Shown one piece after another: positions 3,987 to 54,360 of a stretch of DNA of 64,000 bases. The stretch covers positions 122,276-186,275 of IMG/VR virus record IMGVR_UViG_3300031525_000001; one strand, written 5' to 3'. Below the pieces are notes generated by a model. It did not search any database and was not told the origin of the DNA. It was given only the letters and a program-made list of their open reading frames with translations. Source of the DNA: a virus. Made by a program: the position numbers and the translations under genes. The number at the start of each line of letters is the position of its first letter. Position 1 is the first letter of the stretch.

Positions 3987-6900
3987 ATGGCACAAAGTGG
4001 AAACACCGTAGCTCTTAAATCGTTCCAGTCCTTCATGGTCAATGACGGATTGCTGAGCAAAACTGTCGAAGCTATCAAAGCTGGTGAGAAGGAAGCTCGC
4101 TCCACGGGTAATGTGCAGAGTTTCGAAGTTTTCTACAAGGGCTTTCGTCAGAACATTGCCATCGGTCGCATCTACATCGTCCCCCCATCCGTTGCCGACA
4201 AGAAGGGGCAAGACTTCCCGACCGCCCTGCTCTATGGTTGCCTTGTCCGCACCTTTGGTGGTGAGGAAATCGGCGACATGATCTCCCACAAAATCGGTGA
4301 TACCGAATGGGATGAGTATTCTCAGGCGTCCTACGCATCGATCAAGAAAGAACTCTTCGGCACCGAAAACGACAAGTTCGCCGCCCTCATTTTGTTTGCC
4401 CCCAACTGGGTCAATAAGCGTGAGTACATCGGCTTCCAGTTCCCGAAGGATGACAACGAGCTTGCGAACCTGACTCGTCACTTAGTCTTCAGTTCGTACT
4501 TCGACCCCCGTCTGTCCTCGGCATTCGATGCCCTGATGACCGATGTGGAGACCTCGAAGTTCGATGTCACGGACATCACGCCGAAGATGAACTTCCCCGC
4601 CTTGGCCGAGAATCCGCTGAAGGAATTCCCACTGCTCACCAAGGAGGGTTCAAAGAAGAAAGCCCGCCTTGGGCTAACCATCAAGACCGCCGAAGAAGTC
4701 ACCAAGGCCGTACTAGAGCCGCAGGAGATGGACGTGTTCGAATCTTTGGACACGGCTCTCCGCAACAGCCTCTTGCCAAACGATTCCAAGGGCGTTGAGG
4801 ATGCTTCCGAGGGTAAGGCTCCGACAAAGGGTGAAATGGTTCCACGTCTCTCATCCAAGAAGGGTTCCGCCAAGGTTGCTCATGGCTACATCGCGTTCTA
4901 CGGCGGCAAGCGCATTGAGATTCAAGCCGACTCCCTCTATGGGGCGAAGTTGAAAGCCATCGAGATGCTGAAGGTTCCGAAGTCCAAACAGGGCTTGCTC
5001 GCGGTCGAGCTTGCCGAAAAGGACGGAGAACAGGTCACCACAACAATCACGTCGTCCGCCACTGCGGTATTCGAGACCCCGATTACAAACGTTGGTCCGG
5101 GTACTGAAGCCCATGACGAAGCCAACCAGCGCACCGAAGGCTACAAGGATGAGAAGGACACGCCAAAGGTTGTCATCAACAGCGCACCGATTGGTATCGC
5201 TCTCGACGAGACTGGTGTACCCCGCCGTCCAGAGGAAGAGCGTAAGTCCGCCGCAAGCAGTTACTACCCTGCTTCCGCTGGTAAGGCTCAAACTGAAAAC
5301 GCTGCGGTCGTGGAGAAACACGGTTATACCCAATTTAATTCCAAGCCAGACGGAACTTCCTTTTGGAAGAGTCCTATCGGAACTACCGCTGTTCTATACC
5401 CAAACGGAAGCTGGATGCACACAGGCGGTAAGGGAGATGGGGCAAAGGCCCTTAGCGAGCTTCTCATAAGCTACCACCACGAGAGAGTGCCAAAGGTCAG
5501 CAAGTCAGCAGCGTATGGCGACCGTCGCGATTTTCGGAAGATCGATATCTTCGTTAGCGGCAAGTATGTCGCAAGCACGACATGGGCTAGTTCCATAAAG
5601 GAAGCAATCCAAAAATACGAGGAAAAGAACCCGGGCTCGTGGGCTGGTGAAGTTAAGGCTCAATTTGATAAGAAAGGCTCGGCTGATAAAACTGCCGTAG
5701 ACTACAGCGGCAATTACCCCGAGGCAATCGGCGGTGGTTGGAATAAAGCGACGGCAGATGATCTGTCGAGCGGCTATTCCAAGCAGGTCGGCAACGGTTT
5801 GATGGATGAGACCCCCGACAAAGTAAAGGAACATTTGAAGAAAAATGTCAGTCAAGCCCGTCAGGGTCAGGATGCCCTGAAGGATCACAATGCATCATTT
5901 GACGCCGCCAAGTGGGGCGGACTGGGTGTGAAGCAGGCTTCCTCCCTGTGGGTAGGTTCCGCCAAGAAGGTTGCAGCCAATCTCGATGACTTCACTAGCC
6001 AGTACATTATAACCGCTCTATGGTCTTCGAATGATGAATCTGACCCCAGCGGCGGTGAGCCGTTGGATTCAAACTACGATATCCTCGATCTCGCACCGTC
6101 CTGCTTGCAGGCAATGACCGAAGATTGCGCGGGCTTCCAAGCGGAGAATCAAGAGCTTCTGGCTGCGGCATCCGAACAAGATGGTCAGGACGCCGAGCGT
6201 CAAGGTCATGATTTCTGGCTCACCCGCTGCGGTCATGGTGCGGGCTACTGGGATGGCGATTATCCGACAACGGGCGATGGTTTGACTGAAGCCGCCAAGA
6301 AATGGGGTAGCGTTGATCTGTACGTCGGTGACGACGACATGATCTATCAGATGGGGGCAGAAGACCCGAGTTCGCGTGGTTACGGACAGAAGGGCGGGCC
6401 TGCAAAGGCTGGCTCGAAGATGGCTTCCAAGAAGACCGCCTCGCAAAATGATGCATCATACATCGCCAGCTTGATCGGCGGCGGGGTGCATAGTGAAGAT
6501 TATGACGCTCGTTCGCAGCACTCCAGAACGGCGGCACAGAAGCGCGAAGACGAGATGGCTCGCAAGTATTCCTCTCAGCGTAAAAAGTTTGCCGACGTTC
6601 CTCAGGACATCGAAGACATTTGGTCTGAGACGATGGAAGACATGGGGCCAGCACCCGAGATCAGACTCCCGGGCGAGAGTGAGGACAACGAAAAGTCCAC
6701 CACAGGGGAGCACGAGATCGAGGCTCCAGAGATGGGCGCGGATTCGAGAAGCGACGTTCCTGAGCAGGTCAAGGGCGATCAGGAAGAGCCGACCGTAAAG
6801 GTTGAAGAGGCTCTTGAGAACGACACCACCAAGTCCGAAGAGGACGAGCCCAGCACGGGCGATGGTGGAGCGTCGGCGGACAGCGGTGAAACAAAGTCCG

Positions 6901-9770
6901 AAAAGAAGTCCGAGGGTGGTTCCCAGTCCGAATGGGCGAAGAACCGCAGCAAGGGTAAGTCCGAGAAGAAGGACGAGTCCGAAGAGTCTGAGGAAGAGCC
7001 GAAGGAAGAGGAGTCCAAAACGGCTGCTCGGCCCGGTGCCCGTCCTGCCAGACAGCGTGTCCGTTGCGATCAGTGCGAGATGTTGAGCATCAATGGCACG
7101 GCGACTCACGAGACAGGCTGCCCAAACCAGAATTCCCGCTGGGATGCTGACCGACAGGATTGGGTAAAGCAGCGTCGTTGCGGCGAATGCGGCATGGACG
7201 TTGACGCCGATGATCCGTGTTGTTCTGCGGAACCTGACTTCGACAACGGTTACGACGAAAACGATGAGCATTTTGGTGGGCTCGATGCTATCCTCGCTGA
7301 CGACACCGATGCAGTAATGGAGCAGGCGGAAGAAGCCGCAACAGCAGCCCCCGCTGTGTTCTATGAGTGCGGAGCCTGCGGCGGCGTGCACCCGTCCTTG
7401 GAGACTTCCGAAAGGCTCGGTCTCGGTTGGAACGGTGATTGTCGTGATGAGGTTGGTCACTTCGAAGACAGCGACGTTCCTTACGGAGACAACACTCAGT
7501 TCGTCACCTTGGAAGAGCAGATGGCTCCAGACTTCGATGACGCGATTCTGGCGTCTAAGACTGCGGACTATGCCGAGGGCGACCTTGAAACTTACTTCGA
7601 CGAAGGAAAGACGGCGGATTACGCCGAGGGCGATCTCGAAACCTACTTCGATGAGGGGAAGACGGCAGACTACGCCGAAGATGATTTTGCATCTTACTTC
7701 GGAGAGGAAAAATCGGCGGGACGTTCCACCACACCGAAGTACGTCATTCGTATTCCGGGTTCGACCGATGCCGCATGGAACGTGAGCGGTTACGGACAAC
7801 AGCGTGGTGCGGGCCAGCCAAACCAAGCGAACCTCGCACGGTACATGGAAGCTCTCTTGAAGAGCATGGAACCGGGCGGGCACAACGAGCATTTGGTGGG
7901 TCATTTCGACCCATCCGAAGCTGCGGTTTATCGCAACGACGGCACCTACAAGAACCCGTTGGCTACATGGTCGAAGGGTGAAGCGAAGCAGGGTGCGGAT
8001 GTCTCGGGCGATTTCTCGGAAGCGCATTCCGAGGTTGACAGCCCAGACACCGTGGATCAGGACATCAAGCAGCCGACCGAATCGGTAGGCGAAGCTGGTA
8101 AGAGAAAGAACGCTGATGTGGCGGAAGAAACCAAGGAAGAGCGGGCGAAACGTCTGGAAGATCAGCGTCAGCGCGATGCTCGTGAACTGACACGTCGCAA
8201 GGCGGCTGACATCTCGGGGGACATCTCTGAGGCTAAGTCGAACACGGAAAGCCCTGACGGGGTGGACGCCGACATTAAGCAGCCTACGGTTTCGGTTCCC
8301 GAAGCGGCACGCAAGAACGCTAAGGTGGGATTCACGTTCAATGGACAGCACCGTGAAGCTGCCTTTAGCGATCTCACACAAGCGGGGAAGTTCATAGCGG
8401 TAGCCTCGGCCAAATTTGGAAAATTGGCTAGTGACTGGACGATAACCGCAGCCGATGACGATGATGCGGCGGAAGATCAGTCCGTTGATTCGAAGAAGCC
8501 CGATGACGCTGAAGCTGACGAACCAGCCGAAGCTGCAAAGCCTGCGGATTCGAAGAAGCCTGATGAGACGAAGGGCAAGAACAAGCCCGCCGTTACTCCT
8601 CCCGCGAAGGCTGAAGCACCAGCGGCAGCACCAGCAGCACCCGCAGCGGCGGCGGTTCCAGCGGCGGCACCAGCCGTAGCAGCGCCAGCAGATGGTGCAG
8701 GTGGTAATGGAACCTCGGAAACTTCTGGTAACGAAACATCGACTGAAACTGGCGGTTCAAGTCCGGGTGGTGCATCAACTGGCGGCGTAGGTAGCGGCAT
8801 GGGTGGTGCAGGTACAGGCGGGGCTGGCACAGGCGGTGCCGCGACTAGCACGGGAACAGGCGGGGCTGGCACGGGTGGAACTGTGAGCATTGCACCAACG
8901 AGCACAAACTCAGCGGGTGGTGACGAAGGCGGCGGTGAAGACGGCAGCGTACAAGCTGCTGGTCAACCTGCTGGTGGGGCACAACCTAAAACCCCGACCA
9001 TCATCATCTACAACGGCGGCACGGGCGGTGCATCTACCGTCGATACGGATAGCGGTTCGGGTCCGGGCGGCGATGGGCCGGGTTCTGATGGAACTGGCGG
9101 CACGGGCGAAGGCTCTGGCGGCGGTGGAGGCGGCGGGGGTGGACGTGGAACTCCGCGCAACCCTGAACAGGCAGCGGATGCCGTTTCTCCGGGAGTTGAC
9201 AGCGACAATCGTCAACAAGGTGACTTGGCAGAACCACAGGGCAACCAGTCAAAGGGTAAGCCTTTGGCAACGAAGCCTGAAGGACAAGACGATCAGTTAA
9301 AGGGCAATGATAAGCCCGAGCTACGCGGTGACGCGCCTGTGGAGCCTCAGGAGCCACAGCCTCCACACGAAGACGCAGCAGACGACACGAAAGAAGCTGC
9401 CGCAGGAATGCCAGCCGAAGTCGGGGAATTCCCGTATGTCGAGACGCTGGTAGGTATGGGTTGGAGCGACGAGGGCGAACCGGGGCATTTCATGCTCGGC
9501 GATAGCCGTGTCGAAGTCCTGACGTACACCGATGGCTACGAAGTATACGTAGACGGCGAACTGTACGAATCAGGCGACAACGTGGATGAACTCCAGAACA
9601 CACTGGAACTCGTTGCCGAACTCGGTGTGGATGCGTTGAATGCACATCAGGCCTCAGATGACAAAACAGCATGTGCGGGCTACGGTGACGAAGAAGATGA
9701 AGAGCGTCCAATCGATCTCGGTATCGGCGATCTAGCGGACTTGGTTGTGGAGAAGGAAGATGCCCATTAA
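3987..9770 (+). CDS. giant multi-module polyprotein (about 1927 aa) with recurrent K-x-A motifs
   Basis: AGGAGG RBS before ATG 3987. Short modules separated by KTA/KSAA/KVAA/KFA/KNA, with acidic linkers, tandem repeats and a Gly/Thr/Ala low-complexity tract. Confidence 0.8.
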   Translation: MAQSGNTVALKSFQSFMVNDGLLSKTVEAIKAGEKEARSTGNVQSFEVFYKGFRQNIAIGRIYIVPPSVADKKGQDFPTALLYGCLVRTFGGEEIGDMISHKIGDTEWDEYSQASYASIKKELFGTENDKFAALILFAPNWVNKREYIGFQFPKDDNELANLTRHLVFSSYFDPRLSSAFDALMTDVETSKFDVTDITPKMNFPALAENPLKEFPLLTKEGSKKKARLGLTIKTAEEVTKAVLEPQEMDVFESLDTALRNSLLPNDSKGVEDASEGKAPTKGEMVPRLSSKKGSAKVAHGYIAFYGGKRIEIQADSLYGAKLKAIEMLKVPKSKQGLLAVELAEKDGEQVTTTITSSATAVFETPITNVGPGTEAHDEANQRTEGYKDEKDTPKVVINSAPIGIALDETGVPRRPEEERKSAASSYYPASAGKAQTENAAVVEKHGYTQFNSKPDGTSFWKSPIGTTAVLYPNGSWMHTGGKGDGAKALSELLISYHHERVPKVSKSAAYGDRRDFRKIDIFVSGKYVASTTWASSIKEAIQKYEEKNPGSWAGEVKAQFDKKGSADKTAVDYSGNYPEAIGGGWNKATADDLSSGYSKQVGNGLMDETPDKVKEHLKKNVSQARQGQDALKDHNASFDAAKWGGLGVKQASSLWVGSAKKVAANLDDFTSQYIITALWSSNDESDPSGGEPLDSNYDILDLAPSCLQAMTEDCAGFQAENQELLAAASEQDGQDAERQGHDFWLTRCGHGAGYWDGDYPTTGDGLTEAAKKWGSVDLYVGDDDMIYQMGAEDPSSRGYGQKGGPAKAGSKMASKKTASQNDASYIASLIGGGVHSEDYDARSQHSRTAAQKREDEMARKYSSQRKKFADVPQDIEDIWSETMEDMGPAPEIRLPGESEDNEKSTTGEHEIEAPEMGADSRSDVPEQVKGDQEEPTVKVEEALENDTTKSEEDEPSTGDGGASADSGETKSEKKSEGGSQSEWAKNRSKGKSEKKDESEESEEEPKEEESKTAARPGARPARQRVRCDQCEMLSINGTATHETGCPNQNSRWDADRQDWVKQRRCGECGMDVDADDPCCSAEPDFDNGYDENDEHFGGLDAILADDTDAVMEQAEEAATAAPAVFYECGACGGVHPSLETSERLGLGWNGDCRDEVGHFEDSDVPYGDNTQFVTLEEQMAPDFDDAILASKTADYAEGDLETYFDEGKTADYAEGDLETYFDEGKTADYAEDDFASYFGEEKSAGRSTTPKYVIRIPGSTDAAWNVSGYGQQRGAGQPNQANLARYMEALLKSMEPGGHNEHLVGHFDPSEAAVYRNDGTYKNPLATWSKGEAKQGADVSGDFSEAHSEVDSPDTVDQDIKQPTESVGEAGKRKNADVAEETKEERAKRLEDQRQRDARELTRRKAADISGDISEAKSNTESPDGVDADIKQPTVSVPEAARKNAKVGFTFNGQHREAAFSDLTQAGKFIAVASAKFGKLASDWTITAADDDDAAEDQSVDSKKPDDAEADEPAEAAKPADSKKPDETKGKNKPAVTPPAKAEAPAAAPAAPAAAAVPAAAPAVAAPADGAGGNGTSETSGNETSTETGGSSPGGASTGGVGSGMGGAGTGGAGTGGAATSTGTGGAGTGGTVSIAPTSTNSAGGDEGGGEDGSVQAAGQPAGGAQPKTPTIIIYNGGTGGASTVDTDSGSGPGGDGPGSDGTGGTGEGSGGGGGGGGGRGTPRNPEQAADAVSPGVDSDNRQQGDLAEPQGNQSKGKPLATKPEGQDDQLKGNDKPELRGDAPVEPQEPQPPHEDAADDTKEAAAGMPAEVGEFPYVETLVGMGWSDEGEPGHFMLGDSRVEVLTYTDGYEVYVDGELYESGDNVDELQNTLELVAELGVDALNAHQASDDKTACAGYGDEEDEERPIDLGIGDLADLVVEKEDAH
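7557..7721 (+). repeat. three in-frame 51-nt repeats (KTADYAEGDLETYFDEG) ending at a fourth K-S-A
   Basis: K codons at 7557, 7608, 7659, 7710. Copies 1 and 2 have identical peptides but differ at synonymous positions. Confidence 0.9.
7986..8322 (+). repeat. two about 40-aa coding repeats (ADxSGDxSEAxS..SPDxVDxDIKQPTxSVxEA..RKNA)
   Basis: Copies start at 7986 (KQGA) and 8199 (KAA); both end in RKNA. Confidence 0.8.
8450..9400 (+). repeat. low-complexity coding tract (D/E/K/P, poly-A/P, G/T/S-rich)
   Basis: PAAAPAAP, GGAGTGG repeats and a GGGGGGGG run within the 3987-9770 ORF. Confidence 0.8.
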
Positions 9771-12700: not shown

Positions 12701-13092
12701 CAGGTGCCGACGAAGCCAAGCAGTTCTCGATCTTCCTTCAGTACGTTTGCGGTGAGATCGCGGCTACTCTCGTGGCGTTGTTCAAGGTCACCTATCGTCC
12801 GATGCTGAACCAAGTTCCGGGCAAGGGTGAGATTCAACTGGCTCAGGTCGAACAGCCGCAAGGTCTGTCGAGCTTCAACATCTACAATCAGGCGAGCCGT
12901 GTGAAGTACCTGATGAACAAGCTCACCGACAGCGAGATCAAGGACGCCATCAATAGCTCCTCGGCTCAGGGTGCGGTGTGGCACGAAGGTGAAGAGGGCG
13001 GCTACGTGTACGAAGTTTTCGTCCGTATCGACGACATCGACACTGAGAGCCTGATCGCGACGTATAGCTTTATTTGCGGCACGAAGGAATAA
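9760..13092 (+). CDS. large multi-module polyprotein (about 1110 aa) with K/R-x-A-A motifs
   Basis: ATG 9760 overlaps the end of the upstream ORF. Modules bounded by KQAA, KFAS, RTAA, KIAA, KLAA, RVAA, KAAA, KTAG. Confidence 0.8.
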   Translation: MPIKIDDLHAAAARMAADIMHSDNDLSQKLETATPAAAEAGPSHDELVENSHSESGVGVIDGEIRPPERQNVSAVKDAIEAQAEMEIGKTIGEKEEEMEARGDGPYGDKEVKDTAGATEVTAKPGTQIIINVAGKKQAAREFVVKHTTVNDSRGPKTGWWIFEDGRPSGMRATQEEAVQAAEATAQLRIVNGQVAPVRVEAGQKEQPIGGEKQHPRENTSANGMFGGTNLSATPNFEKHSEEGAPDPDTVARVRGQYTSGMGRKSCMEHFKITEQQLDDILSGKYGKGKFASYHEVKAAFLKKGSFLTIDEVKKAGQEYLHMIRTAAISVAQGQDEQGFHMLLSMNGREYVLRGADADSFRKEYAAIPKPEAAVNKLVEKYLWKMQPYQKQTIQHPPSETKQDPNSQALRRQRSEGLADADAYWAGKEKQPNDYKRYMTQHASAKIAATSYAEYQKLVQERNQIISQNRSRQMKGQPPVPVPPKPEVPMVPVAYAADGTYEGRLQDPADCPPGCTVKWEPSKGASMMTLAKLAADYFGYDDWITGHTALMINNDSAGLTTLHNLVRSALKNKKTPKMLAGQLAKFFKKFGDQSKKFYAENADNARGERGKHEREQLEGVVKAPSGDKARDFVDNLTNMWYDAGGQSDWEQPAGEVNWEEIASAEMESERAENPDKYPKTNKEDDKFMEGVGMKMESLRTATAVLARVAAMSVGDKHQLRIAIDSLKMNPAMLGVMGGPDKEQALEILARHGLRWDEAGGKAVKANDKKAAAGCDWQTEYGMGAGDARCGQPTTGNSPWCAEHIQEAKDNYPQHALPTKNGGEGAAKTPEEIEKEAGFNFFFPGQVLREVAPEMQHELVDYPNQTNTPMQYPDIVGDGEEVPEEMALAAALEGAMDTTIIAYVSTSPAAAAGIGRDGKTEVLEGAPLRKENDIRGMMFTDEFYGQQEGVPGAAFASTKAAGGFARPGSAFKFLKSLKLGKTAGADEAKQFSIFLQYVCGEIAATLVALFKVTYRPMLNQVPGKGEIQLAQVEQPQGLSSFNIYNQASRVKYLMNKLTDSEIKDAINSSSAQGAVWHEGEEGGYVYEVFVRIDDIDTESLIATYSFICGTKE

Positions 13093-37831: not shown

Positions 37832-37840
37832 GATTGGTGC

Positions 37841-42136: not shown

Positions 42137-42679
42137 ATGGCAGTCGCACCCTTCACCCGCATTGTGGTCGATAAGAAGGAGGAGGCGAAGTTCCGTCGCC
42201 GAGCCCTGAATCATTACCCATTGGAATACATGGAAGCCCTGTGGGGCAAAGTACGCAGCGATATCCTCTACATTCATGCCTTTGTGAAGGTCGATCACAA
42301 GCCCGGAAAACGCACCCTTCGGTACGAGGATTACGAGATCGATGAACATGAAGAGGACGCAGCCGAGATCGGGTTGACTTACCTCGGCACCATTCACACC
42401 CACCCGAACGCCAACGACGCCCAGTTCAGCGAAGTTGACTGTGAGCAGTCGCAGGATTCTCAAGACGTGATGATGGGTATCTGTGCCATCCAAACTACCT
42501 ATCTTGATGAGGAAACCAAGACTCAAAAGCCCCTGAACCGCAAGGTCGTCCGCGTTGAATACTGGCCTACTGTGACCCCGCTCATCGCAATTCGCCGCGA
42601 TACACCGCCCTCAAGGTCGGTCAAACGAGCCCTCAAAAGGGGCTATAAACTGGCGAAAAAGAAGAAGTCCCGCCGTTGA
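42137..42679 (+). CDS. JAB/MPN+ metallopeptidase
   Basis: N-terminal E (PLEYM) and GTIHTHPNANDAQFSEVD (HxH-x7-S-x2-D). Confidence 0.8.
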   Translation: MAVAPFTRIVVDKKEEAKFRRRALNHYPLEYMEALWGKVRSDILYIHAFVKVDHKPGKRTLRYEDYEIDEHEEDAAEIGLTYLGTIHTHPNANDAQFSEVDCEQSQDSQDVMMGICAIQTTYLDEETKTQKPLNRKVVRVEYWPTVTPLIAIRRDTPPSRSVKRALKRGYKLAKKKKSRR

Positions 42680-42700
42680 ACTTCCACTTTCTATGGTAGG
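42679..42700 (+). promoter_or_regulatory. promoter-like motif variant (AACTTCCACTTTCTATGG) and RBS-like GGTAGG
   Basis: Directly upstream of the 3883-aa ORF. Confidence 0.35.
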
Positions 42701-42708
42701 ACGCTAGA

Positions 42709-45700: not shown

Positions 45701-48700
45701 GGACTGGCATCTATTGGTCCTACGACGAGAATAACGCCTATGTGCACGAAGAACTCGCTGCTGGGCACCCGCACATCGTAATCCTGCGTGGCGTCGTGAG
45801 TTCGCCCAAGCAGATCGACTGGATTCGCACTGCCTACGTGAACCTCGTGGCAGCCGATGAGCGGGAGATCAACATTCATCCGGGTGAAGAAATCCAGATC
45901 ACGGGCTACAAATACAAAGGTGAGAAGGCGTGGAAGAATCCGCCAAAGAACCTTCGCACAGTCCGTGCGGCAGCGCAGAACTTCAAGCCCATGCCGTTCG
46001 ACAACTGGTGTGACGCGAATCCGATGTACCAGCCAGACGATTTCAACGAGGCTGAGTACCGCTACGACGAGAATGTCGCCCACTTCAGCACAGTGGACTT
46101 CCCCATCACGATCTATCGTGCGGTTCAAGTTGAGCAGGGCACGCAACCGAATTTGGAAAAGGCGGGCGTCTATTGGACGTGGGTTGAGAACAGTGCCGAT
46201 GCGTACTTTGGCTCGGGGTCAATGTGGGATCAAGGTGGTCCGCACCCGAAACATCCTCAAACCTTGATCCTCAAAGCCAAGGTACTACGCTCAACCGATG
46301 TGGACTGGGACGCGACTCTTCTTGCTAACATGCTCAACGAAGATGAAAATGAGATCACAATTGAGTCGGGCGCTGAGCTTCAATTGATTGGTATCGATTA
46401 CGGGCAAGGCTATAAGAAGCCCGCTCAGAAAAGGGTCATGGCATACGGCGACGAATCCAAGAACCTGCCTTTGCGTGGTCAGAAGGGCATCGGCGGACAG
46501 GACTTCCCTCTGATGTTCGACCCGCCGTTGTTCTCCGATGAGAAGGAAGCCGCACGGAAGATGCCGAAGTTCTACCACGGCACGGCAGCGGAGAACCTCG
46601 ACGATATCCTAAAGAACGGCCTCAAAGCCAGTAAGGACGCTGCGTCGGCAAAGATGGGAATGTTTAATCCCAACCGAGCCAACGTACAGTACAAGTCTGA
46701 GCAGGGTGTAGGTGAGTGGCAGGGCTGGAACATTGATTTCAGTGCCGATCCAGTCAAGGAACACATGCTGCCCGCATCGTTCGTTCGGAAACTGAAGGGA
46801 ATCGAGCAGAAATTCATCAACGTCGCCGATGTGGTGGAAACGCAGGGCGAGCAATGGACAACTGACAGACGTGTGGACGAGATTCACACGCAGATGGAAG
46901 CGGAGAAGTGGTTCGAAGCCATCCTCGTAGATGAGTACGAAGACCAGCCGGGGAAATACTACTTGGAAGAGGGGCATCACCGCACCCGTGCGGCTAAGAA
47001 GATGGGCAAAACGACTATTCCAGCCGTGATTATGAAGTTGGAACCCCGTAAACCCCACTGGTCGTTATCGTCAGGTATCGTCAGAAAATCGTCAGATATC
47101 GCCAAGTTTGCGTTCTTCATCGAAGTGCCGAAAGAAACCCGTGGTCATTTCTGGGACGAGCCGCCCGCGCACAATCTGGAGTTCTGGGCATTCCGAAGCC
47201 GTCCGCCAGTCCTGATGAACGAGAAGGTTTACTTCACGTTCGACAAGATGCCTGTCGCAGAGACCACCGTCCTCAAGGTTGAGAAGCCGGGTGAGTCGTT
47301 GTGCGAACTGAGCGGCAAGTACGAAGACCACTGGAAGCTTTACTGGGAACCGAAGCAGTTTGTCAAGTATGCAGGCACCACAGCGCCTACGCTGTACCAT
47401 GGCACCTGCCCCGAGAACGCTGAAGCCATCATGAAGAACGGCTGGGGGCCGAATCAAGTCTCATCGGGCGGGAACGCTGGACAGCCGCAGTACCTCTATC
47501 TCACGAACTTCCCTGAGAATGCTCAGTGGTTCGCCAATGAGAAGGGGTGCGACACCATCCTTGAGGTCCGTAACATCCCGATGTCGTATCTCGAAGTTGA
47601 TCCTGAGGACGGCACTGAGGACACCATTGAGAGAGAATTGAACTTTAGCGAGAAGGCATTCCCCGGCACGGTTGTACTGACAAAGCCACTACCTGCGGAC
47701 CACTTCAAGGTGTTCAAGAGTAAGATCGGCAGCCTGAATGAGAAGCGGAATGAAAAGTGGATTTACCACCCTGACTATGGCGCGTTCTCGCAGAAGGGAA
47801 GCATAGGCCCTCATGCAACACTGATAGCGAGAACTATGGGTGAGGGCATGTCCTCTGGGCGGAAGTACGAAGAGGTACTACGGGGCTACGCGGTGATCGA
47901 CGTGGATCAGAAAACCGTGACCTTGGCAACCCCCACAAACGAGTTGATACCTAACGACGTGGTAGACCTGTTCAAAAAGACATATCCCCACTACGCCCTA
48001 TCGATCCCAGCGGAGTCGAAAGCAATCGGTGTGACCGCCGCCATGCCGAAGAAGTGGTATCACGGCACGTCCACGAAAAATGCCGAGATTATCATGGGGG
48101 ATGGTTACCTACGCCCAGATCAGGAGACCACCTACGACATCGACATCCCGCGTGACGGGGCGGTATACATCGCAGAGTTCGACGTAGCAAACCAGTACGC
48201 TATCGAGCGCGGCGGACCCGTGCTTGAGGTAGCCGCTCCTGACATCAGTAAGCTCCTGCCCGATGAGGACGATGTTTACGAACTCCTCAATGACCGTGGT
48301 GGTGAGTTGAACGCCAAGGGTTCCGCCCAAGCCAAGCGAGTTAAGGCTTTGTGGCTCAAGCAATGGAATGACGAGAATGCTTCCTACAATGAGCCCGAGA
48401 AGTTCCCGGTCTACAAAAACTTCGAGGAAGCGTGGAAAGCATGGGGCGAGATCGAGTTCGAGGGCTCGGCAGAGCTTGCGGAGCAGATGAAGTATCTGAC
48501 CGACTACATCGTCAAGAATGACCCCAAGCTCGCTCGTGCAATCATCGAACTCAGTGGCAAGGCCGCTCACATGGGACCGCTCAAGGTCGTGCGTCAAGTC
48601 AAGACCGCCGCACCGAAGTCCATCTGGTATCACGGCACCAGCATCAAGAATCTGCGAAGCATCATGAGTCAGGGGTTAGTTCCTGAAGGTACGGAAAAGG

Positions 48701-51700
48701 TTTGGGCAGACGATCCTGATGCTGGGATATCCGCACCCAGCCGTCAATCTTACGGCGGCATTTACGTGTCACAGAACCTCATGACGGCTGCGGGAGCCCC
48801 CGATACCGAGGATAGAAAGGCTCGCGGCGGCTCGCTCGTGGTTATCATGGAGCTTCAGCCGAACACCATGTACCTTGACGAGGACAACGTTACGGGGGTT
48901 CTCGGTGCTCCAATCAAGCACATGAGCGATAACACCTTCCACGTTCTCTGCTACTACTTGGCAGCTACACAGGAAGGCGCAACCCAAGACTGGCAGGATG
49001 AGATCAGGGTGATGCGGGAAGATTACGTCCGCAAGTGTTTCACGCAATGGGAAGCCAAGTTCGCTGAACGTAAGATGCCATTCCATCCCGAACTGAAGGC
49101 TGAGCTTGAGAAGCTCCTACCCAGCGTGTGGCTAGGTGCCGTCACCCGTGCGGCGGGTCACGTCAAGGACAACTACTCCTACATTCGGGCATGGGATCAA
49201 GTCTTCTACGGCACCCCTAAGGAGAAACAACGCCCCGACATGAACACCATACTCCCCGATGCGTCCGAGGGAGAGGCGGCGTTCCGCGAAGCGGCAGAGA
49301 AGGTCACCCGTACATTGCGGCTCCTAGCCCGTCCGAACACTGAAGGAAGCCAGACATACAACATTAACACCTCCCGCATCAATGAGCCGATTGGCTTCAG
49401 CGGGTCAAACCACATTCTCGCTCTCGTAGAAGTTCGGGACCTTGAAGTGCGGGCAACCCCATCGCCAGTTCGAATGCTTCTACACTGGGGCACCATCCCG
49501 CAGGATTTCTTCAGCCAGTGGAATACAAAGTACGGCAGCAAGTATGAAGTGGTGGACGCACGCAAGGGTCAGCCCAAGGCTAAGGGCGTGGCGGCATCGG
49601 CTCACGAAGACGATCCTCAGGTCTTCTACCACGGAACCTCGTGGCAGGCCGCTCAACTGATCGACAAGGAAGGTCTGAAAGCGAGCGACAACCGTCTGAC
49701 AGGCGGCAAGAAATACATCTGGTGCGCCATCGCGGAGTTCGCGGCGAAGGAATACGGTGCGAGTGTGACGGACAGCGACCAGTACGCCGTGATCGAGTTC
49801 ATCTGGGATTACGGCAAGAGCGAGCCTGACCCGGAGCATTTCGAGGAAGGCGACATGTACCGTCGCATTGAGGGCGATATCTCTCGGCAGAACATCACCG
49901 CCATCAAGTATTTCGATGGTGGGCGGATCGTCAAGACGGCTGGGTTTGAGGAAGAAATCAAGATCACCACGGCACCAGACGGGCGAATTACCGCCAAACA
50001 CGTCGATGGAAGTGCTTCCGGCACCATGGAAGACCGCGAGGGGCTGGTTAAGTGGTTTGATTGGAGCACTTTACCCAAAGGTGGGGCTGGAATTTACGAC
50101 AAAGCCTTCGTTTTGGGCACCGTAAGCGTCAAGGTCGCGACACGTCGTAATGGGCTCGGCAGGGCGCTTGTAGGGGCTGTGCTCGACGCAGCGAAGGCTC
50201 AGGGTGCCCAAGTGTGCTTCTTGCTCGCTCATTCGCTCACAGGGCTCTCTGGGAAGGAATTAAGCTCCTTCTACAACAGTCTGGGGTTCCAGCCCTACGT
50301 GATCGACCCGCCGCCACGATGGTTCGACAGCAGCACCGCAGGCATCTTCATGAAGAAGCTGGCAGGCGTGGCAAAGCTCGCCGCCATGAACCGCATTAGC
50401 CAGCAGGACGCCGTTGACCGCAAGATGTTCGGCCCTGTCTACCATGGCACCACCGAGGAGAAGCAGGAGAACATCGGGAACGAGGGCTTCAAGGTCTACA
50501 TCGGGGACGCGGGATCGGGCGACGTTGCCCACGGTTACGAAGGTAACCAACCCTACCATGACGGCATCCCAGCCCCCGTGCACCATCTGGGTTACGGCGT
50601 GTACTTCACGACCGCCAAGGCTATCGCCAAGCAGTTCGCAGGCGGCACCACGCGGGGCATGAAGACCTACTACCTCGACGTGCCACGGCTGGAGACCATC
50701 AACTTCGGAGTGCCGAAGACCATGATGAAATGGTGGATCAGTCAGGGCTACAACGCGGACCTCGCCAAGAAGAATCGCGTGGAAGCGACCAAGCCGATGA
50801 CCGAGCACCTGAAGGCTCAGTTTGACGCCGTATGGTTCAAGGGCAAGGGCATGTACAAGCTGCTCGACGGCGATCAGATTTGTGTGTTTGACGCGAGCCA
50901 CATCTATGAAGTGGACGCTGCCATGTCTAAGCCGGGTGACATCGGCTCCAAGGTCACTCGTAAGGCTGATGGGATGAAGGGTGTCATCAAGAACATCCGC
51001 AGCATTCCGCCTGATGTGGCACAACAGTATCACGGTGGGGCTGACAAGTTCTACGAGATCAAGTGGGCGAAGGGCGGCACCGACCATAACGTCTATGCCC
51101 GCGACATAGACTTCGTTGGGGCGAAGGCTCAAGGTGCAACGGCGTCGATGAAGATCGCCGAAGGATTCAATAATGAGGGCTTCTGGGCGGGCGAGGGTAA
51201 CGCCGCGTCTGGCGTGCTGCCGATCTGCACCACCACTGGTCGCATCTGTCTCGCGTGGCGGTCACCCGATGTTCACATCGGCAATTGCTGGGGCACCATC
51301 GGTGGAGCGGTCAAGCCAAAGATGAGCCTCGCGGACAGTGCCAAGGCCGAACTAACGGAAGAGACGGGCTTCACGGGCGGCATCACCATGCACCCAGCTT
51401 ACGTATTTTCAAAGGGCGGCTTTTCCTATCACAACTTCCTCGGCACCGTGGGTACGGAGTTCCGCTTCGCCCCGCAGTCCGAACATCACTGGGAAACCAC
51501 GGGTCTAGAATGGTTCACGTGGGTAGATATTCAGGAGATGGTGAAGGATAACGCCAGCGATTTCCACCCGGGACTCATCAGTTTGTTCAAGAGCGACGGC
51601 AAGAAGATCGAGCAGCTTCTCGGTAAGCCCAAGACGGCTTCGGACGACGACGGGGATATGCCGAACATGCTTCAGGTCTTCCCCGAACGTCCCGATGTGA

Positions 51701-54360
51701 TGGAGACTTTCCGCCACATGCGTCTGTTTGAGCGTGACCGTTTGATCGAGGAAGCTCAACTTGAAGAATTACATCCAGCCGATCTGAAGACGAATCAGGC
51801 GACCCTCAAGCGGAAAGACCTCCAGTATTTCTTGGACAACCCCGAGGAGATCACCAAGCCGCACAGCAATGTCGGGCTGAGTGACACGGAGCAGTTGTAC
51901 CCCCTCGTGTGCCGCACCACCGAAGGCGATTGGCTGTACGACGGCAACCACCGCGCAAACGCCGCCATGAAGCTCGGCATCTTGCTCAAGTGCAAGGTCG
52001 TGGACCTACGAGATTACGAGGAGCCACGGGGGAAAGTCTCCCGAAAGCTCGCTGCTCGCGGTGAAGTGGGTCCTGTGTATCACGGCACCGATAAGAAATT
52101 CGACAAGTTCGAGCAGAAACCCGGCACCCGATACATTCTCTTCTCCGAGATTAAGGTACAAGCTGGTGGGTTCTTCTTCACCGATGACCCTGAGGAAGCG
52201 AAAGAGTTCGGCTCAAACGTCATGACCTGCTACTTGAAGATGAAGAAGCCACTGATTCGGCAAGAAGATCAATACAATCTGAGCAAGAAACAGATCGCCG
52301 ACCTGACTTACATCTGCGAGCTATGTATGAGTGACGGCTATTCCGACTTGCAAGGCAATTCCGTCAAGACGATTGAACTGGGAGCCTTTGCCATCGATGT
52401 AGACCCAGAAGGCAACTGGCTCAACGAGATTGTGAAGCAGAACGGCCTCGATTGGAACATTTTGGACAATCAGGAAGCCGTCAACCGCATGAAGGAACGC
52501 GGCTACGACAGCACCATGGTGGATGAGTACAACGGCAAGTATAGCTATTGCGTGTTTTCAGCCGACCAGATTAGGATCGGCGGCGGTAAAGCAAAGGCGT
52601 TGACCGCAGCCACACCAGCCCGAGCCCTCAAGCTCTATCACGTCACGACAGTGCCTATTGCCAAAGACATCAAAGCTCACGGCTTCAAGCCCGTGGATCA
52701 AGGTATGTGGAAGAACTACTACGCTCCGCAGGGACGCGACGGCATCTACTTTTACGACGATTTGAAATACTCCGAGGCTTACGCCGCCTACGCTGAGGGT
52801 CAACTCTTCACACGCAACATGCAGCCAGAGAATTCGTGGGAAGAAAACAAGAAGCAAATACCTCAGATGGCAATCATTGAAGTACAGGTTCCCGAAGGCG
52901 TGGCAATCACCACCGACCAGAAGGAGGATGGGTTCTTCGTACCTACAGCCGATCTGGGTAAGGTCAAGATCACGGGTATGCACAAGTACGATTACGTCCC
53001 TACCGAGGGCAGGAAGCCCGGTGAGAAGTTCGGGGCAGCCTTCCCAACCTTCGAGCAGGTGATGGACGAATCCACCTTGGCTGATGACGAATTCATGTTT
53101 GGCAGCGACGAGGAAAGCAAACGCTGGTACGATCAGGCGTTGGCGTTCTGGAAATCCCAAAAGTTCCCGCTCACGGTGTATCGCGGCATGGCTGTTTTCA
53201 ACGAGCGTCATGACATTGACTACAGCACCTTCGGTTGGTCATGGTCTTTGGATAGGAAGTTTGCCGAGAACTTTGCGGAAGATAAGTACATCGACTACCC
53301 CGATCAACACCGCATCGAGGTCTTCGAGGGTAAGATCAAAGCGAACGCTGTGGACTGGCTTAACACCTTCAGGGCATGGGTCACTCTCCCCGAAGAGAAG
53401 GAAGTCCGCCTCAAGCCCAAGGCTCAGGTCGAACTCCCAGCGTTAGGCCGATCCGTGACCGCTGCCGATCTTCCTCGTAGCAAGTACGACAAGGTTTGCT
53501 ACACTATCGCCATGGACGATGCGCTGTACGGCTACTTCGGTCAATACGTGCAGTGTGCCGACGCCTTTGAGGACAACCCAGCGGCATCCGGTCGAGTGGT
53601 TGAGTTGGTCAAATCACTCACGCCATTCGTACCGCCGACTACTCGAAAGTGCCTCTATCGTGGGGAAGAGATTCGCATGGGCGACGACCGCGAGCCCGCC
53701 AAGTGGGAGCCACATCTTCGAGACCTGTTGTCTTGGTCGGCAGCTTACGACACCGCCAAGGGATTCTCGGGCGGACATCGGGGCATCGTGTGGCAGACCG
53801 TGGGCAAGATTCAAGGTATCGCTCTGGAGGATATCGTTCTTTGGCGTAATCGAACGCACCCCGATGAAAGCAACTATCCGGGTATGCAGTCCGAGTGGTT
53901 TGTGATGAATACCTGCAACGCGAAGGAAGCAACCCCGCCCAACGCACAGCCAGCCCGAAGCTATGTGACCGCTGCGGCTGATGGGTTCCTTTACCACGGC
54001 ATGAGCATGACGGACTACAATCGAGCCATGAGTGCTGGCGGCGTACTGCCTGAGCCTAGCTGGTGGGGCACCGCTGAGATCGCCGAGTATTACGCTGAGA
54101 CCGCTGCCGAAGAGATTGGACCCGAGGAAGAATACAAGGTTATCAAGTTACCACTCAGTGCATTCAACCCCGCGTTGCTGGAGGCCGACCAGAACTCGGT
54201 TGCTGAGCCTCTGACCTACACGCTTGGTCGTAGTGAAGATGAGTTGTATGAGGAATGGCAGAACTGCAAGGGTACGTGGCAAGACAGCCTGAGAATTTAT
54301 GGGAGCGTTGTCTACAACGCCCCCATTGAGGTCACCGCACAAACCGTCCTTTCTTCTTAG
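42709..54360 (+). CDS. 3883-aa polyvalent polyprotein (14 ART-like, 3 ParB/Srx-like, 2 GNAT, SprT-like, 2H, Nudix, ASCH/PUA-like and unknown modules)
   Basis: YH(G/V) motifs at 42781, 46570, 47392, 48055, 48625, 49624, 50437, 52075, 52633, 53986. YR(G/A) at 45637, 46111, 53176, 53653. GRHR/GHHR/GNHR; HELCH 44176; PHIT/PHVT 44845/45079; Nudix-like box 51301. Confidence 0.9.
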   Translation: MNPLLRKIAKQPATTTSFFETDGFLYHGTTLRDLKSILTEGKVEGHSYWGVRETADMYEGGAMLRLPVSRFNEAFLLPDENMIQDPYFMEDENGDYDQKKMNATNRAWKASKKTWMDSLKIWGAVMYDEDMPVTPADAIEGRQVMASKTATELPPLKFTQPSDRKLEDYELVWVDTQKLDREWSKDKHLYLAPGDKTNHIGDRYARFTQWRQDNPNTPVEAPIVSWSDNAGGEAHFTNGRHRFSVLRDQGYPKVQIMVPQSQIETFSKLASSSVREINISEDQGSAEGYTADTNAEQLQNWLDRFGYTNKEFVADLRKKYDTFAVLNNINVYEDSRGKGYGDYLLAEFLREAGDRGAGICLLVADTAEEQAQGFNLVEWYERNDFEQVASVYGGELMIMGIMNPKVAAQKTAADIGQVKNIINEMMGVLASGLPHPEVKIVNQTNRMLGYDVWERGRDEAGNTWGADNTTIGIQKSILGHEESLRRTIAHELCHHEVALLIGKPKLMEVGFDAYNKYKKLLAPEGHGKEWQAVAARFNAKYGADFVTEFSDQSVISDEPTKEYWLLLNNYVYGRHKQRLGWQWALGLSRQAMAYLDGLDWTSGEFKLVKTNDHVFTRGRGRIKQYGGWNLPRTPEQEQKIQDLWANAPMAKFGCSAAQDEADIEAAKKAKSGPHKNATSQINLPPDAASGMMEAAKQIPDEELGKDGREDDPHITVKYGVKPDPALLSQVVGEQQPFTVTLGKTHVFSVSESSDAQAPIVVQCHAPELEALHNKVAEAMGTRKDDFPYVPHVTLAYVKPDAAAKYEGMDWAEGISFQVDSITLSTKGGGQVRVPFGKPRKSASHKTPPMSDTQYRNPEMGEETNAYADIPERVMGVEDLPSLESLSPDLFKTGAGSVYDLDLQDVVAWGGSLSEAQGDWDKIRSEAAGRAKAEGKDWEKMPEAEQEVWLDKIGWEWLGATWEITMNRLQSLKFPLTVYRGLGSVSLKEINKGQYAEKGTGIYWSYDENNAYVHEELAAGHPHIVILRGVVSSPKQIDWIRTAYVNLVAADEREINIHPGEEIQITGYKYKGEKAWKNPPKNLRTVRAAAQNFKPMPFDNWCDANPMYQPDDFNEAEYRYDENVAHFSTVDFPITIYRAVQVEQGTQPNLEKAGVYWTWVENSADAYFGSGSMWDQGGPHPKHPQTLILKAKVLRSTDVDWDATLLANMLNEDENEITIESGAELQLIGIDYGQGYKKPAQKRVMAYGDESKNLPLRGQKGIGGQDFPLMFDPPLFSDEKEAARKMPKFYHGTAAENLDDILKNGLKASKDAASAKMGMFNPNRANVQYKSEQGVGEWQGWNIDFSADPVKEHMLPASFVRKLKGIEQKFINVADVVETQGEQWTTDRRVDEIHTQMEAEKWFEAILVDEYEDQPGKYYLEEGHHRTRAAKKMGKTTIPAVIMKLEPRKPHWSLSSGIVRKSSDIAKFAFFIEVPKETRGHFWDEPPAHNLEFWAFRSRPPVLMNEKVYFTFDKMPVAETTVLKVEKPGESLCELSGKYEDHWKLYWEPKQFVKYAGTTAPTLYHGTCPENAEAIMKNGWGPNQVSSGGNAGQPQYLYLTNFPENAQWFANEKGCDTILEVRNIPMSYLEVDPEDGTEDTIERELNFSEKAFPGTVVLTKPLPADHFKVFKSKIGSLNEKRNEKWIYHPDYGAFSQKGSIGPHATLIARTMGEGMSSGRKYEEVLRGYAVIDVDQKTVTLATPTNELIPNDVVDLFKKTYPHYALSIPAESKAIGVTAAMPKKWYHGTSTKNAEIIMGDGYLRPDQETTYDIDIPRDGAVYIAEFDVANQYAIERGGPVLEVAAPDISKLLPDEDDVYELLNDRGGELNAKGSAQAKRVKALWLKQWNDENASYNEPEKFPVYKNFEEAWKAWGEIEFEGSAELAEQMKYLTDYIVKNDPKLARAIIELSGKAAHMGPLKVVRQVKTAAPKSIWYHGTSIKNLRSIMSQGLVPEGTEKVWADDPDAGISAPSRQSYGGIYVSQNLMTAAGAPDTEDRKARGGSLVVIMELQPNTMYLDEDNVTGVLGAPIKHMSDNTFHVLCYYLAATQEGATQDWQDEIRVMREDYVRKCFTQWEAKFAERKMPFHPELKAELEKLLPSVWLGAVTRAAGHVKDNYSYIRAWDQVFYGTPKEKQRPDMNTILPDASEGEAAFREAAEKVTRTLRLLARPNTEGSQTYNINTSRINEPIGFSGSNHILALVEVRDLEVRATPSPVRMLLHWGTIPQDFFSQWNTKYGSKYEVVDARKGQPKAKGVAASAHEDDPQVFYHGTSWQAAQLIDKEGLKASDNRLTGGKKYIWCAIAEFAAKEYGASVTDSDQYAVIEFIWDYGKSEPDPEHFEEGDMYRRIEGDISRQNITAIKYFDGGRIVKTAGFEEEIKITTAPDGRITAKHVDGSASGTMEDREGLVKWFDWSTLPKGGAGIYDKAFVLGTVSVKVATRRNGLGRALVGAVLDAAKAQGAQVCFLLAHSLTGLSGKELSSFYNSLGFQPYVIDPPPRWFDSSTAGIFMKKLAGVAKLAAMNRISQQDAVDRKMFGPVYHGTTEEKQENIGNEGFKVYIGDAGSGDVAHGYEGNQPYHDGIPAPVHHLGYGVYFTTAKAIAKQFAGGTTRGMKTYYLDVPRLETINFGVPKTMMKWWISQGYNADLAKKNRVEATKPMTEHLKAQFDAVWFKGKGMYKLLDGDQICVFDASHIYEVDAAMSKPGDIGSKVTRKADGMKGVIKNIRSIPPDVAQQYHGGADKFYEIKWAKGGTDHNVYARDIDFVGAKAQGATASMKIAEGFNNEGFWAGEGNAASGVLPICTTTGRICLAWRSPDVHIGNCWGTIGGAVKPKMSLADSAKAELTEETGFTGGITMHPAYVFSKGGFSYHNFLGTVGTEFRFAPQSEHHWETTGLEWFTWVDIQEMVKDNASDFHPGLISLFKSDGKKIEQLLGKPKTASDDDGDMPNMLQVFPERPDVMETFRHMRLFERDRLIEEAQLEELHPADLKTNQATLKRKDLQYFLDNPEEITKPHSNVGLSDTEQLYPLVCRTTEGDWLYDGNHRANAAMKLGILLKCKVVDLRDYEEPRGKVSRKLAARGEVGPVYHGTDKKFDKFEQKPGTRYILFSEIKVQAGGFFFTDDPEEAKEFGSNVMTCYLKMKKPLIRQEDQYNLSKKQIADLTYICELCMSDGYSDLQGNSVKTIELGAFAIDVDPEGNWLNEIVKQNGLDWNILDNQEAVNRMKERGYDSTMVDEYNGKYSYCVFSADQIRIGGGKAKALTAATPARALKLYHVTTVPIAKDIKAHGFKPVDQGMWKNYYAPQGRDGIYFYDDLKYSEAYAAYAEGQLFTRNMQPENSWEENKKQIPQMAIIEVQVPEGVAITTDQKEDGFFVPTADLGKVKITGMHKYDYVPTEGRKPGEKFGAAFPTFEQVMDESTLADDEFMFGSDEESKRWYDQALAFWKSQKFPLTVYRGMAVFNERHDIDYSTFGWSWSLDRKFAENFAEDKYIDYPDQHRIEVFEGKIKANAVDWLNTFRAWVTLPEEKEVRLKPKAQVELPALGRSVTAADLPRSKYDKVCYTIAMDDALYGYFGQYVQCADAFEDNPAASGRVVELVKSLTPFVPPTTRKCLYRGEEIRMGDDREPAKWEPHLRDLLSWSAAYDTAKGFSGGHRGIVWQTVGKIQGIALEDIVLWRNRTHPDESNYPGMQSEWFVMNTCNAKEATPPNAQPARSYVTAAADGFLYHGMSMTDYNRAMSAGGVLPEPSWWGTAEIAEYYAETAAEEIGPEEEYKVIKLPLSAFNPALLEADQNSVAEPLTYTLGRSEDELYEEWQNCKGTWQDSLRIYGSVVYNAPIEVTAQTVLSS

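Follow-up and report, generated by a model that had tools for sequence, protein, structure and literature searches.

We analysed a 64-kb window that forms the end of one 186,275-bp contig (bases 122276-186275; IMG/VR record IMGVR_UViG_3300031525_000001). In this window a short amino acid motif, K-x-A followed by a small residue, recurs at the domain joints of a giant open reading frame (ORF) and in several other large ORFs (Table 1). Judged from its sequence, the source genome is that of a 186-kb soil myophage with a relative in the jumbo phage Tunturi_5 (Tunturiibacter phage; 309 kb), itself a myophage of Acidobacteria. Tunturi_5 is the closest phage found (69% identity in the capsid protein and 63% in the head protease), and the next-nearest capsid and protease sequences belong to an uncultured 485-kb phage, Bacillus phage G, and cluster C mycobacteriophages. 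A nucleotide search against phage records returned 0 matches. Proteases and polyvalent proteins are not discussed in the paper that describes the Tunturi phages.

Pfam assigns to the giant ORF an ART-PolyVal domain (PF18760; 68.8 bits against a cut-off of 31.2), about 10 starts of YHGT-type ADP-ribosyltransferase (ART) modules of the PARP/Tpt1-like kind, two GNAT domains, two ParB_N domains, and a NUDIX domain. The protein also holds a 2H phosphoesterase (2H ligase-like Pfam match) and an SprT-like zincin, which scores 28.3 bits (cut-off, 25.6) in a 500-amino-acid (aa) scanning window and 23.2 bits, below the cut-off, in the whole protein. It contains 13 K-x-A-[A/S/G] and 5 [V/L/M]-T-A-A sites. 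Its first and last modules are paralogous (ART-like, aa 24-137 and aa 3755-3876), and both match the same C-terminal module of a 1735-aa ORF of one relative. The shorter ORF 40244-42130 matches InPase (PF18823; 105.6 bits against a cut-off of 26.8, E value of 2e-30) and RelA_SpoT (E value of 4e-11); its joints carry KDAA/KQAA, LTAA, and KTAS, and its high-scoring segment pair (HSP) with Tunturi_5 stops at aa 273, beside the LTAA at 277. Polyvalent proteins, as described by Iyer, Burroughs, Anand, de Souza, and Aravind in 2017 (PMC5512222), carry many (2 to 15 or more) unrelated enzymatic domains on one polypeptide in phages or plasmids, and a zincin-like metallopeptidase is a hub domain of the family. 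By domain content, both ORFs are polyvalent proteins in this sense. The Tunturi_5 homologue of the Prok-JAB gene that separates them, gp271 (annotated as a “minor tail protein”), likewise lies beside InPase and polyvalent proteins.

A further group of motif-rich ORFs occupies window positions 927-13092. The N-domain of ORF 3987-9770 is 39% identical to the N terminus of Tunturi_5 gp350, and the C-terminal 290 aa of ORF 9760-13092 match the gp350 C terminus; Pfam detected no domains in either ORF. The two ORFs, which overlap by 11 nucleotides, correspond to the first 260 and the last 260 aa of gp350, a single protein of 1080 aa. The gp350-type gene is about threefold larger here through inserted modules, and it is split or translationally coupled. 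ORF 3987-9770 also contains three tandem 17-aa acidic repeats (KTADYAEGDLETYFDEG), each opening with KTAD (window positions ~7560-7715; aa 1208-1258 when the ORF is read from 3936), which would, if cut, yield small acidic peptides resembling the T4 internal peptides.

The original prediction had read these ORFs as polyproteins cut after [KVLR]-x-[AG]. In this form the motif occurs at chance level in all four ORFs (161 sites observed versus 160.0 expected in the giant ORF; z = 0.1), and the G-containing sites (KFG, KMG, KIGS, and KTGA) are, taken as a class, without statistical support (K.G[AS], 1.36x, with a dot for any residue). Because enrichment was absent, we replaced the loose form by K-x-A-[A/S/G]. 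This tighter motif, together with some [V/L]-T-A-A sites, is real. The individual sites had been listed correctly, apart from small shifts of KTAA (actually at 43936) and of the second KLAA (at 50374). Confirmed sites of the giant ORF are KLAS at 43510, KVAA at 43921, KSAS at 45226, KEAA at 46543, KYAG at 47365, VTAA at 48031, KTAA at 48601, KTAG at 49933, KLAG at 50356, KTAS at 51631, KLAA at 52045, LTAA at 52600, and VTAA at 53455 and 53965. The predicted separation of the domains of ORF 40244-42130 was borne out by KQAA, LTAA, and KTAS sites, as was recurrence through ORF 3987-9770 (K.A[AS], 10 observed versus 3.0 expected; 8 KTA) and ORF 9760-13092 (K.A[ASG], 11 versus 2.6).

An unbiased scan of the whole 186-kb proteome placed KTA first among enriched tripeptides (46 observed versus 15.6 expected), and the gapped patterns, those with cysteine aside, are led by K.AA (53 versus 26.3) and K.AS (35 versus 15.5). 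Both also head the Tunturi_5 list (41 versus 14.6 and 26 versus 9.1, respectively). Proteome-wide, K.A[AS] is found 88 times versus 41.7 expected (2.1x), and in the 199 kb of Tunturi_5 analysed it is found 105 times versus 43.9 expected (2.4-2.8x). Permutations of the same residues reach 0.7-1.7x in this phage and up to 2.2x in Tunturi_5, and the order-specific controls E.A[AS] and K.[LIV][ASG] stand at 0.6-1.0x and ~0.8x, respectively. Because 43 motif sites are encoded by 42 distinct 12-mers, the constraint acts on the protein, and a DNA-level cause such as a recombination joint or a methylation word was rejected.

The excess of K.A[AS] is class specific: it is about threefold in head-internal, scaffold-like, and polyvalent ORFs and about onefold in tail genes and most other genes (see the gene blocks in Table 1). 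The motif-rich proteins of Tunturi_5 are gp328 (a “DNA ejection protein,” 10 sites), gp350 (9 sites), gp348 (8 sites), the scaffold-like gp332 (6 sites), and gp345 (5 sites); four tail-fibre proteins of that phage (1100-1400 aa) have 0 motifs.

That the motif marks domain boundaries holds under three independent definitions of a boundary, namely the ends of between-genome BLAST matches, the ends of deep homologues, and AlphaFold linkers. Modules of the giant ORF turn up again, differently ordered, in Tunturi_5 and in giant ORFs from five IMG/VR relatives (contigs of 237-463 kb). Within 10 aa of the HSP ends between these genomes lie 11 of the 13 strict K.A[ASG] sites of the giant ORF (3.6 expected, p = 3e-5) and 22 of the 26 sites originally listed (7.3 expected, p = 3e-9), and the control patterns are flat (E.A[AS], 0/5; K.[LIV][AS], 2/6; [AS]A.K, 4/8). 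The effect is weaker in the giant ORFs of the relatives, with 32 of 85 motif sites near breakpoints versus 16.7 expected. Where a joint of this phage keeps the motif in Tunturi_5, the linker sequence around it has diverged. The joint before NUDIX has KIA here and KVA at the equivalent place in gp273 of Tunturi_5; the joint after it has KTAS here and KKAS in Tunturi_5, where an ART comes next instead. Likewise, the joint after the 2H domain reads KSAS here and KTAN there, and a joint before an ART reads VTAA here and KSAS there. A locus search with the NUDIX segment alone gave one near-identical contig and nothing else.

For deep homology, aa 2290-3460 of the giant ORF were compared with 1.84 billion proteins using phmmer; query positions are numbered within this segment. 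Most of the best 150 homologues begin at query positions 263-274, where KLAA occupies 267-270, and some stand-alone homologues of the ART module align from their own residue 1 at position 271, the Met after KLAA. NUDIX homologues begin at 513-540, mostly at 519-534 (KIA at 526-528), and end at 681-697 (KTAS at 686-689). Other homologues end at 823 (KLAA at 824) or cover 1010-1155 (LTAA at 1009 and KFGAA at 1151), and the Pfam ART-PolyVal envelope opens 2 residues past the KLAA that precedes it. An AlphaFold2 (AF2) model of aa 2545-3125 has a mean predicted local distance difference test (pLDDT) score of 87 and five segments with scores below 50. All five K-x-A sites of the four joints in the modelled stretch fall within four of these low-confidence segments, which together make up 9% of the chain (~7e-5 by chance over four joints); the sole K-x-A outside the linkers is KWAK, inside a domain.

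The original prediction suggested looking elsewhere in the genome for a prohead protease and for K-x-A sites in the scaffold and the capsid. A prohead protease gene was found (genome positions 80281-81183), and its own flanks carry K-x-A-[A/S]. It belongs to a head module outside the window in the order tail sheath, 488-aa ORF, 221-aa ORF, 551-aa ORF, protease, 732-aa scaffold-like ORF, and capsid gene; placement of the protease between the head-internal side and the scaffold and major capsid genes is kept in the relatives. Among PHROG families, the protease hits 18299 (“head maturation protease”; E value of 6.3e-15). Pfam gave nothing useful for the protease, the scaffold-like ORF, or the leader-bearing ORFs described below, and the protease has no Pfam match at all. 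In its AF2 model, residues 50-265 form a confidently predicted core, and the flanks are disordered. When the model was compared with 48,161 chains, the first four matches were T4 gp21 (Z = 7.6 over 128 aa; root-mean-square deviation, 3.6) and the assemblins of varicella-zoster virus (VZV; Z = 7.3), human cytomegalovirus (HCMV; Z = 5.8), and KSHV (Kaposi's sarcoma-associated herpesvirus; Z = 5.5). Foldseek returned no hit at an E value of ≤0.001, with gp21 ranked first at 0.086. The protease probably has a fold of the herpesvirus-assemblin/T4-gp21 type: the top matches are all of one family, but their Z scores stay below 8, the threshold of the search tool. Six candidate catalytic residues (His57, Ser63, Ser98, His111, Ser115, and His220) are invariant in 28 protease sequences.

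Eighty related IMG/VR loci yielded 42 distinct proteases. In all 42, K-x-A-[A/S] is present in both of the variable, low-pLDDT flanks of the core, as KTAS, KTAA, KSAS, and others on the N-terminal side and with the consensus F-A-K-A-A-S on the C-terminal side, and K-x-A lies within the first nine residues in 36 of them (e.g., MPFTKIANA and MSFKKTANA). The arrangement extends to phage G, an AT-rich Firmicute phage of very different base composition, whose gp19 has KIAG and KTAA ahead of the core and KVAS and KIAS behind it. In gp90 of Mycobacterium phage Alice (Bixzunavirus; positions 42678-47213 of its record), the protease is fused to ~1300 aa of scaffold-like, low-complexity sequence, with KTAG immediately past the core and then KNAS-RTAA-V-RTAA. 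In Alice, which has a high-GC host, Arg seems to occupy the Lys position as well.

The 732-aa scaffold-like neighbour of the protease is dense in the motif; of its 14 K-x-A-[A/S/G] sites, one occupies residues 8-11. The KTAG and KLAA of the capsid protein proved uninformative, and the capsid protein was dropped as a marker substrate, its N-arm being shared with phage G, where the motif is absent. The N-terminal leader of the giant ORF, MNPLLRKIA, is real and is common to two other proteins. In the form MNPL[LF][RQ]K it opens the giant ORF, the 551-aa ORF directly upstream of the protease (MNPLFRKKA), and a 481-aa ORF (MNPLFQKK); it runs into K-x-A in the first two, and the third continues with KKT. 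The gene upstream of the protease in eight relatives opens with [NS]PL[LF][RQK], usually followed by x-A, and the sequence is found almost nowhere else. The leader is a putative capsid-targeting sequence or pro-peptide. The 481-aa ORF (genome positions 37078-38523), which has no family match, carries NPL[LF]QK twice, at residues 2-7 and 60-65.

From these observations we infer cleavage, the cutting enzyme, the scissile bond, head packaging, and injection as follows. The polyvalent domains would be joined by short flexible linkers containing K-x-A-[A/S/G] or, in some cases, [V/L]-T-A-A, and the prohead protease that the phage itself encodes most likely has these linkers as substrates. The protease would trim its own N- and C-terminal extensions, degrade the scaffold-like protein encoded beside it, take off the short leader (MNPL[L/F][R/Q]K-x-A) from cargo proteins, and, within the prohead, divide the giant ORFs into individual enzymes. 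The released ADP-ribosyltransferases, NUDIX, 2H phosphoesterase, GNAT, ParB-like, pyrophosphatase, and RelA/SpoT domains would then enter the host together with the DNA. The assemblin consensus, (V/L)-x-A followed by S, is close to the K/V/L-x-A-S/A found here. We place the probable cut after Ala, with K at P3, Ala at P1, and a small residue at P1', because (i) domain homology begins right past K-x-A or K-x-A-A, (ii) leaders end in K-x-A, and (iii) assemblin cuts after Ala and before Ser.

We assign a probability of roughly 0.6 to the reading that the K-x-A-[A/S] joints are prohead-protease cut sites, i.e., that head-protein processing is here applied to polyvalent proteins. This reading is supported because the motif brackets the protease core, fills the scaffold-like protein, is enriched only in the head-associated and polyvalent blocks, and is kept at Tunturi_5 joints. 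What survives of the original prediction is therefore junction-coded cutting by a phage head protease; the degenerate motif and the G sites do not. Several findings weigh against cutting by the head protease. Permutations such as [AS]K.A are enriched 1.7-2.2x genome-wide, and in the relatives the controls A[AS] (1.5x) and [AS]A.K (1.85x) are also enriched near breakpoints, so that Ala-rich linker composition is part of the boundary signal. Many joints in the relatives lack the strict motif, which lies within 28 aa of the ART start in 17 of 49 cases, including 8 of 10 in this phage. The Z scores of the structural matches all lie in the tool's non-decisive zone. Furthermore, KTAG and KLAA of the capsid protein lie in an N-arm that aligns to the phage G capsid protein, and the deposited phage G chain covers 280 of 282 aa, almost the entire protein; thus, the motif need not mean a cut.

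In one alternative, the joints are left uncut. K-x-A-[A/S] might then be what Lys/Ala-rich spacers favour as a flexible linker or helix cap, or a short motif that docks to scaffold, DNA, or the interior of the capsid, and the giant ORFs would be intact multi-enzyme proteins, like the N4 virion RNA polymerase and ArdC/TraC1. Delivery of some polyvalent proteins unprocessed is known, Ala-rich controls are enriched at breakpoints, permutations are mildly enriched genome-wide, and the part of the capsid protein that carries the motif is structured in phage G. However, the enrichment depends on residue order, as the E.A[AS] and K.[LIV][ASG] controls indicate, the four-residue motif is strictly kept in both variable protease flanks of 42 relatives and of an AT-rich Firmicute phage, and N-terminal leaders finish in it. 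We consider this reading unlikely but, in view of the control patterns and the capsid protein case, leave it about a fifth of the probability. A different cutter, acting before, during, or after injection, is less probable still. The zincin inside the giant ORF has an intact HExxH and an SprT-like Pfam match and is retained, with its HELCHH, in Tunturi_5 gp321, and the stand-alone JAB gene exceeds its Pfam cut-off and is syntenic with polyvalent genes in Tunturi_5, all of which counts against the head protease as the cutting enzyme. However, the C-terminal residue after which JAB enzymes typically cut is Gly, not Ala, and the 20-kb surroundings of the giant ORFs in five relatives yielded no JAB homologue. 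Iyer et al. assign just such a role to embedded zincin peptidases (PMC5512222), but in all 42 relatives, phage G, and Alice the motif also surrounds the core of the prohead protease, and it fills scaffold-like proteins without a zincin; self-processing by a head protease is the simpler explanation of this. Finally, the motif might be read by a host enzyme or by phage Clp-type machinery and mark fragments for degradation, not release, in that a cut past K-x-A-A would leave ssrA-like ...LAA or ...TAA C termini for a phage ClpX-like ATPase. A ClpX-like gene is present in the window, and ClpP and ClpX are among the proteins that the phage G paper reports from mass spectrometry of virion particles, but the idea is speculative and comes from sequence resemblance only, a ClpP was not identified here, and both the conservation around the protease core and the class-specific distribution would go unexplained. 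We regard it as very improbable.

Processing by the prohead protease would have precedents in several systems. In T4 (gp21), phiKZ, and SPN3US, the prohead protease cleaves numerous head-internal proteins at a short motif (PMC10052503, PMC9026906). As in T4, with its gp21 and the substrates IPI-III and Alt, a protease of probable assemblin type (gp21 being the top structural match) would trim itself, several proteins share a short N-terminal leader that ends at a protease-type motif (compare the T4 capsid-targeting sequence), and the cargo includes ADP-ribosyltransferases, as Alt is one. The motif differs, K-x-A-[A/S] here and [L/I]-x-E in T4; no sequence similarity to gp21 is detectable, and the cargo consists of giant multi-joint chains, whereas T4 uses single proteins with one cut each. 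In phiKZ (gp175) and SPN3US (gp245), too, one head protease serves many head-internal substrates, some of them multi-site, by a three-residue consensus, but these enzymes cut after Glu (A/S/G-x-E), and their substrates are not enzyme arrays joined at every domain boundary; their sites were defined by mass spectrometry (PMC10052503). Herpesvirus assemblin, with its R-site and M-site autoprocessing, frees itself by a cut after Ala, which becomes its mature C terminus (PMC4498786). It probably shares its fold with the present protease, and the pUL26 order of core, linker with site, and scaffold is found literally in Alice gp90. The present case differs in being a bacterial virus, in having mostly Lys at P3, in its many more substrates, and in a scissile bond that is a prediction.

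The domain repertoire (ART-PolyVal, InPase, zincin, ParB, NUDIX, and GNAT) is that of the polyvalent proteins of Iyer et al., who predict delivery with the DNA and proteolytic release of the domains, assign the processing to embedded zincin or C-terminal assemblin-like peptidases, and describe no junction motif (PMC5512222). Here, in contrast, a conserved joint motif is tied to a separate prohead protease. Delivery with the DNA would in this phage be backed indirectly, by the shared N-terminal leader and by synteny with head genes. The Dar proteins of phage P1 (DarB, DdrB) are likewise large anti-host-defence enzymes that are loaded into the prohead, some of them processed before packaging; ORFs 3987-9770 and 9760-13092 have as their Tunturi_5 homologue gp350, which is annotated as DarB-like, and no shared motif is known for Dar. 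Our literature searches found E-specific motifs for T4, phiKZ, and SPN3US but neither a K-x-A code nor junction-coded processing of polyvalent proteins. These searches agree with the original prediction that no such scheme had been described, except that polyvalent processing by embedded peptidases was predicted in 2017. What is new here is a distinct putative code that resembles that of assemblin, in a clade with cultured members. A broader proposal would be that one substrate code, K-x-A and then A/S, extends across an assemblin-fold prohead protease lineage (Acidobacteria soil phages of up to 463 kb, Bacillus megaphage G, and Bixzunavirus mycobacteriophages) and is used with the NPLL(Q/R)K leader as a plug-in system; we hold it tentatively, at somewhat less than even odds.

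Table 1. Motif-bearing genes, joints, gene blocks, and neighbouring features of the phage genome (window coordinates start at the first base of the window and genome coordinates at that of the contig)
Feature	Coordinates	Strand	Basis or remark
Giant polyvalent ORF, 3883 aa	window 42709..54360	+	Pfam
N-terminal leader MNPLLRKIA of giant ORF	window 42709..42735	+	Ends in K-x-A
Embedded SprT-like zincin metallopeptidase, intact HExxH (HELCHH)	window 44014..44328	+	Pfam PF10263
Joint KLAG-VA-KLAA before ART module	window 50356..50385	+	AF2 residues 1-12, pLDDT <50
Joint K-I-A directly before NUDIX	window 51151..51159	+	AF2 low-confidence residues 263-272
Joint KTAS between NUDIX and ParB-like domains	window 51631..51642	+	AF2 low-confidence residues 431-436
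Joint KLAA between ParB-like and ART-PolyVal domains	window 52045..52056	+	AF2 low-confidence residues 562-581
Polyvalent ORF, 628 aa: InPase, middle module, RelA/SpoT, C-terminal module	window 40244..42130	+	Pfam
Stand-alone Prok-JAB metallopeptidase-like gene, between both polyvalent ORFs	window 42137..42679	+	PF14464, E 7.7e-8, above cut-off
Motif-rich ORF, 678 aa	window 927..2963	+	Homologue of Tunturi_5 gp348 (8 motifs)
Motif-rich ORF, 1927 aa	window 3987..9770	+	Globular N-domain, then small modules and acidic/low-complexity spacers
Motif-rich ORF, 1110 aa	window 9760..13092	+	K.A[ASG] excess
Motif-rich ORF, 488 aa, further upstream of protease	genome 75425-76891		
ORF directly upstream of protease, 551 aa	genome 78599-80254		
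Head protease gene	genome 80227-81183		True start ~80281
Major capsid gene	genome 87552-88667		
Block: head-internal, protease, scaffold	genome 75425-83381		K.A[AS] observed/expected 2.7x
Block holding capsid gene	genome 83382-94598		K.A[AS] 3.0x (5 sites)
Block	genome 94599-101653		K.A[AS] 2.7x
Block: gp348/gp350-like	window 927-13092		K.A[AS] 3.4x
Block: InPase, JAB, giant ORF			K.A[AS] 2.8x
Block: tail fibre and baseplate			K.A[AS] 1.2x
Block: neck and sheath			K.A[AS] 1.1x
Block	genome 101654-123201		K.A[AS] 1.0x
Block	genome 135368-162518		K.A[AS] 0.4x
Block: mixed/early	genome 31312-65277		K.A[AS] 1.7x
Last block	genome 176636 to end		K.A[AS] 2.3x (3 sites)
GIY-YIG-type homing endonuclease	window 317-1015	+	
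HNH/endonuclease VII gene	window 13143-13667	+	
tRNA, anticodon CTA (amber suppressor, labelled tRNA-Pyl), just upstream of terminase gene	window 14351-14425	+	ARAGORN
Large terminase subunit	window 14721..16853	+	PHROG terminase large subunit families, E 1e-9
Ice-binding-like domain (PF11999, E 1e-23) and K1-lyase C-terminal domain, 536 aa	window 22153-23763	+	
ClpX-like AAA+ ATPase (AAA_2 and ClpB_D2-small)	window 56371-57573	-	

The large terminase gene adjoins the downstream side of the ORFs at window positions 927-13092, which places this motif-rich block beside the packaging genes; the GIY-YIG-type and HNH/endonuclease VII genes border the block on either side. A TAG stop ends 40 of 198 crude ORF calls, those of the giant ORF and the terminase included, and a tRNA with a matching amber-suppressor anticodon is encoded in the window. 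Amber read-through of the giant ORF was set aside as a candidate, the gain being just 12 residues. The ice-binding-like domain of the 536-aa protein is consistent with a cold-soil phage.

If the joints are cut, one 11.6-kb gene would supply, out of the capsid, some 25 individual enzymes of host takeover or anti-defence. The model established for T4 Alt and the internal proteins (IP) and for the phiKZ inner body would then extend to polyvalent proteins, and the question of polyvalent processing left open by Iyer et al. in 2017 would have an answer. The protease would represent a second specificity class of phage assemblin-fold proteases, similar to herpesvirus assemblin, and the code would allow virion cargo and the ends of mature proteins to be predicted from sequence in a soil-phage clade that is large and mostly uncultured, and might offer a route for loading foreign proteins into capsids. 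Tunturi_5, phage G, and the Bixzunaviruses are cultured and virion proteomics data exist for phage G (npj Viruses 2025; PMC12484599), so that the idea is testable now. If the broader plug-in proposal is true, a captured gene placed behind a K-x-A linker would become a capsid-loaded, individually released, and injected enzyme, which would account for the building of effector arrays of 3000-3900 aa and for their reshuffling exactly at the joints.

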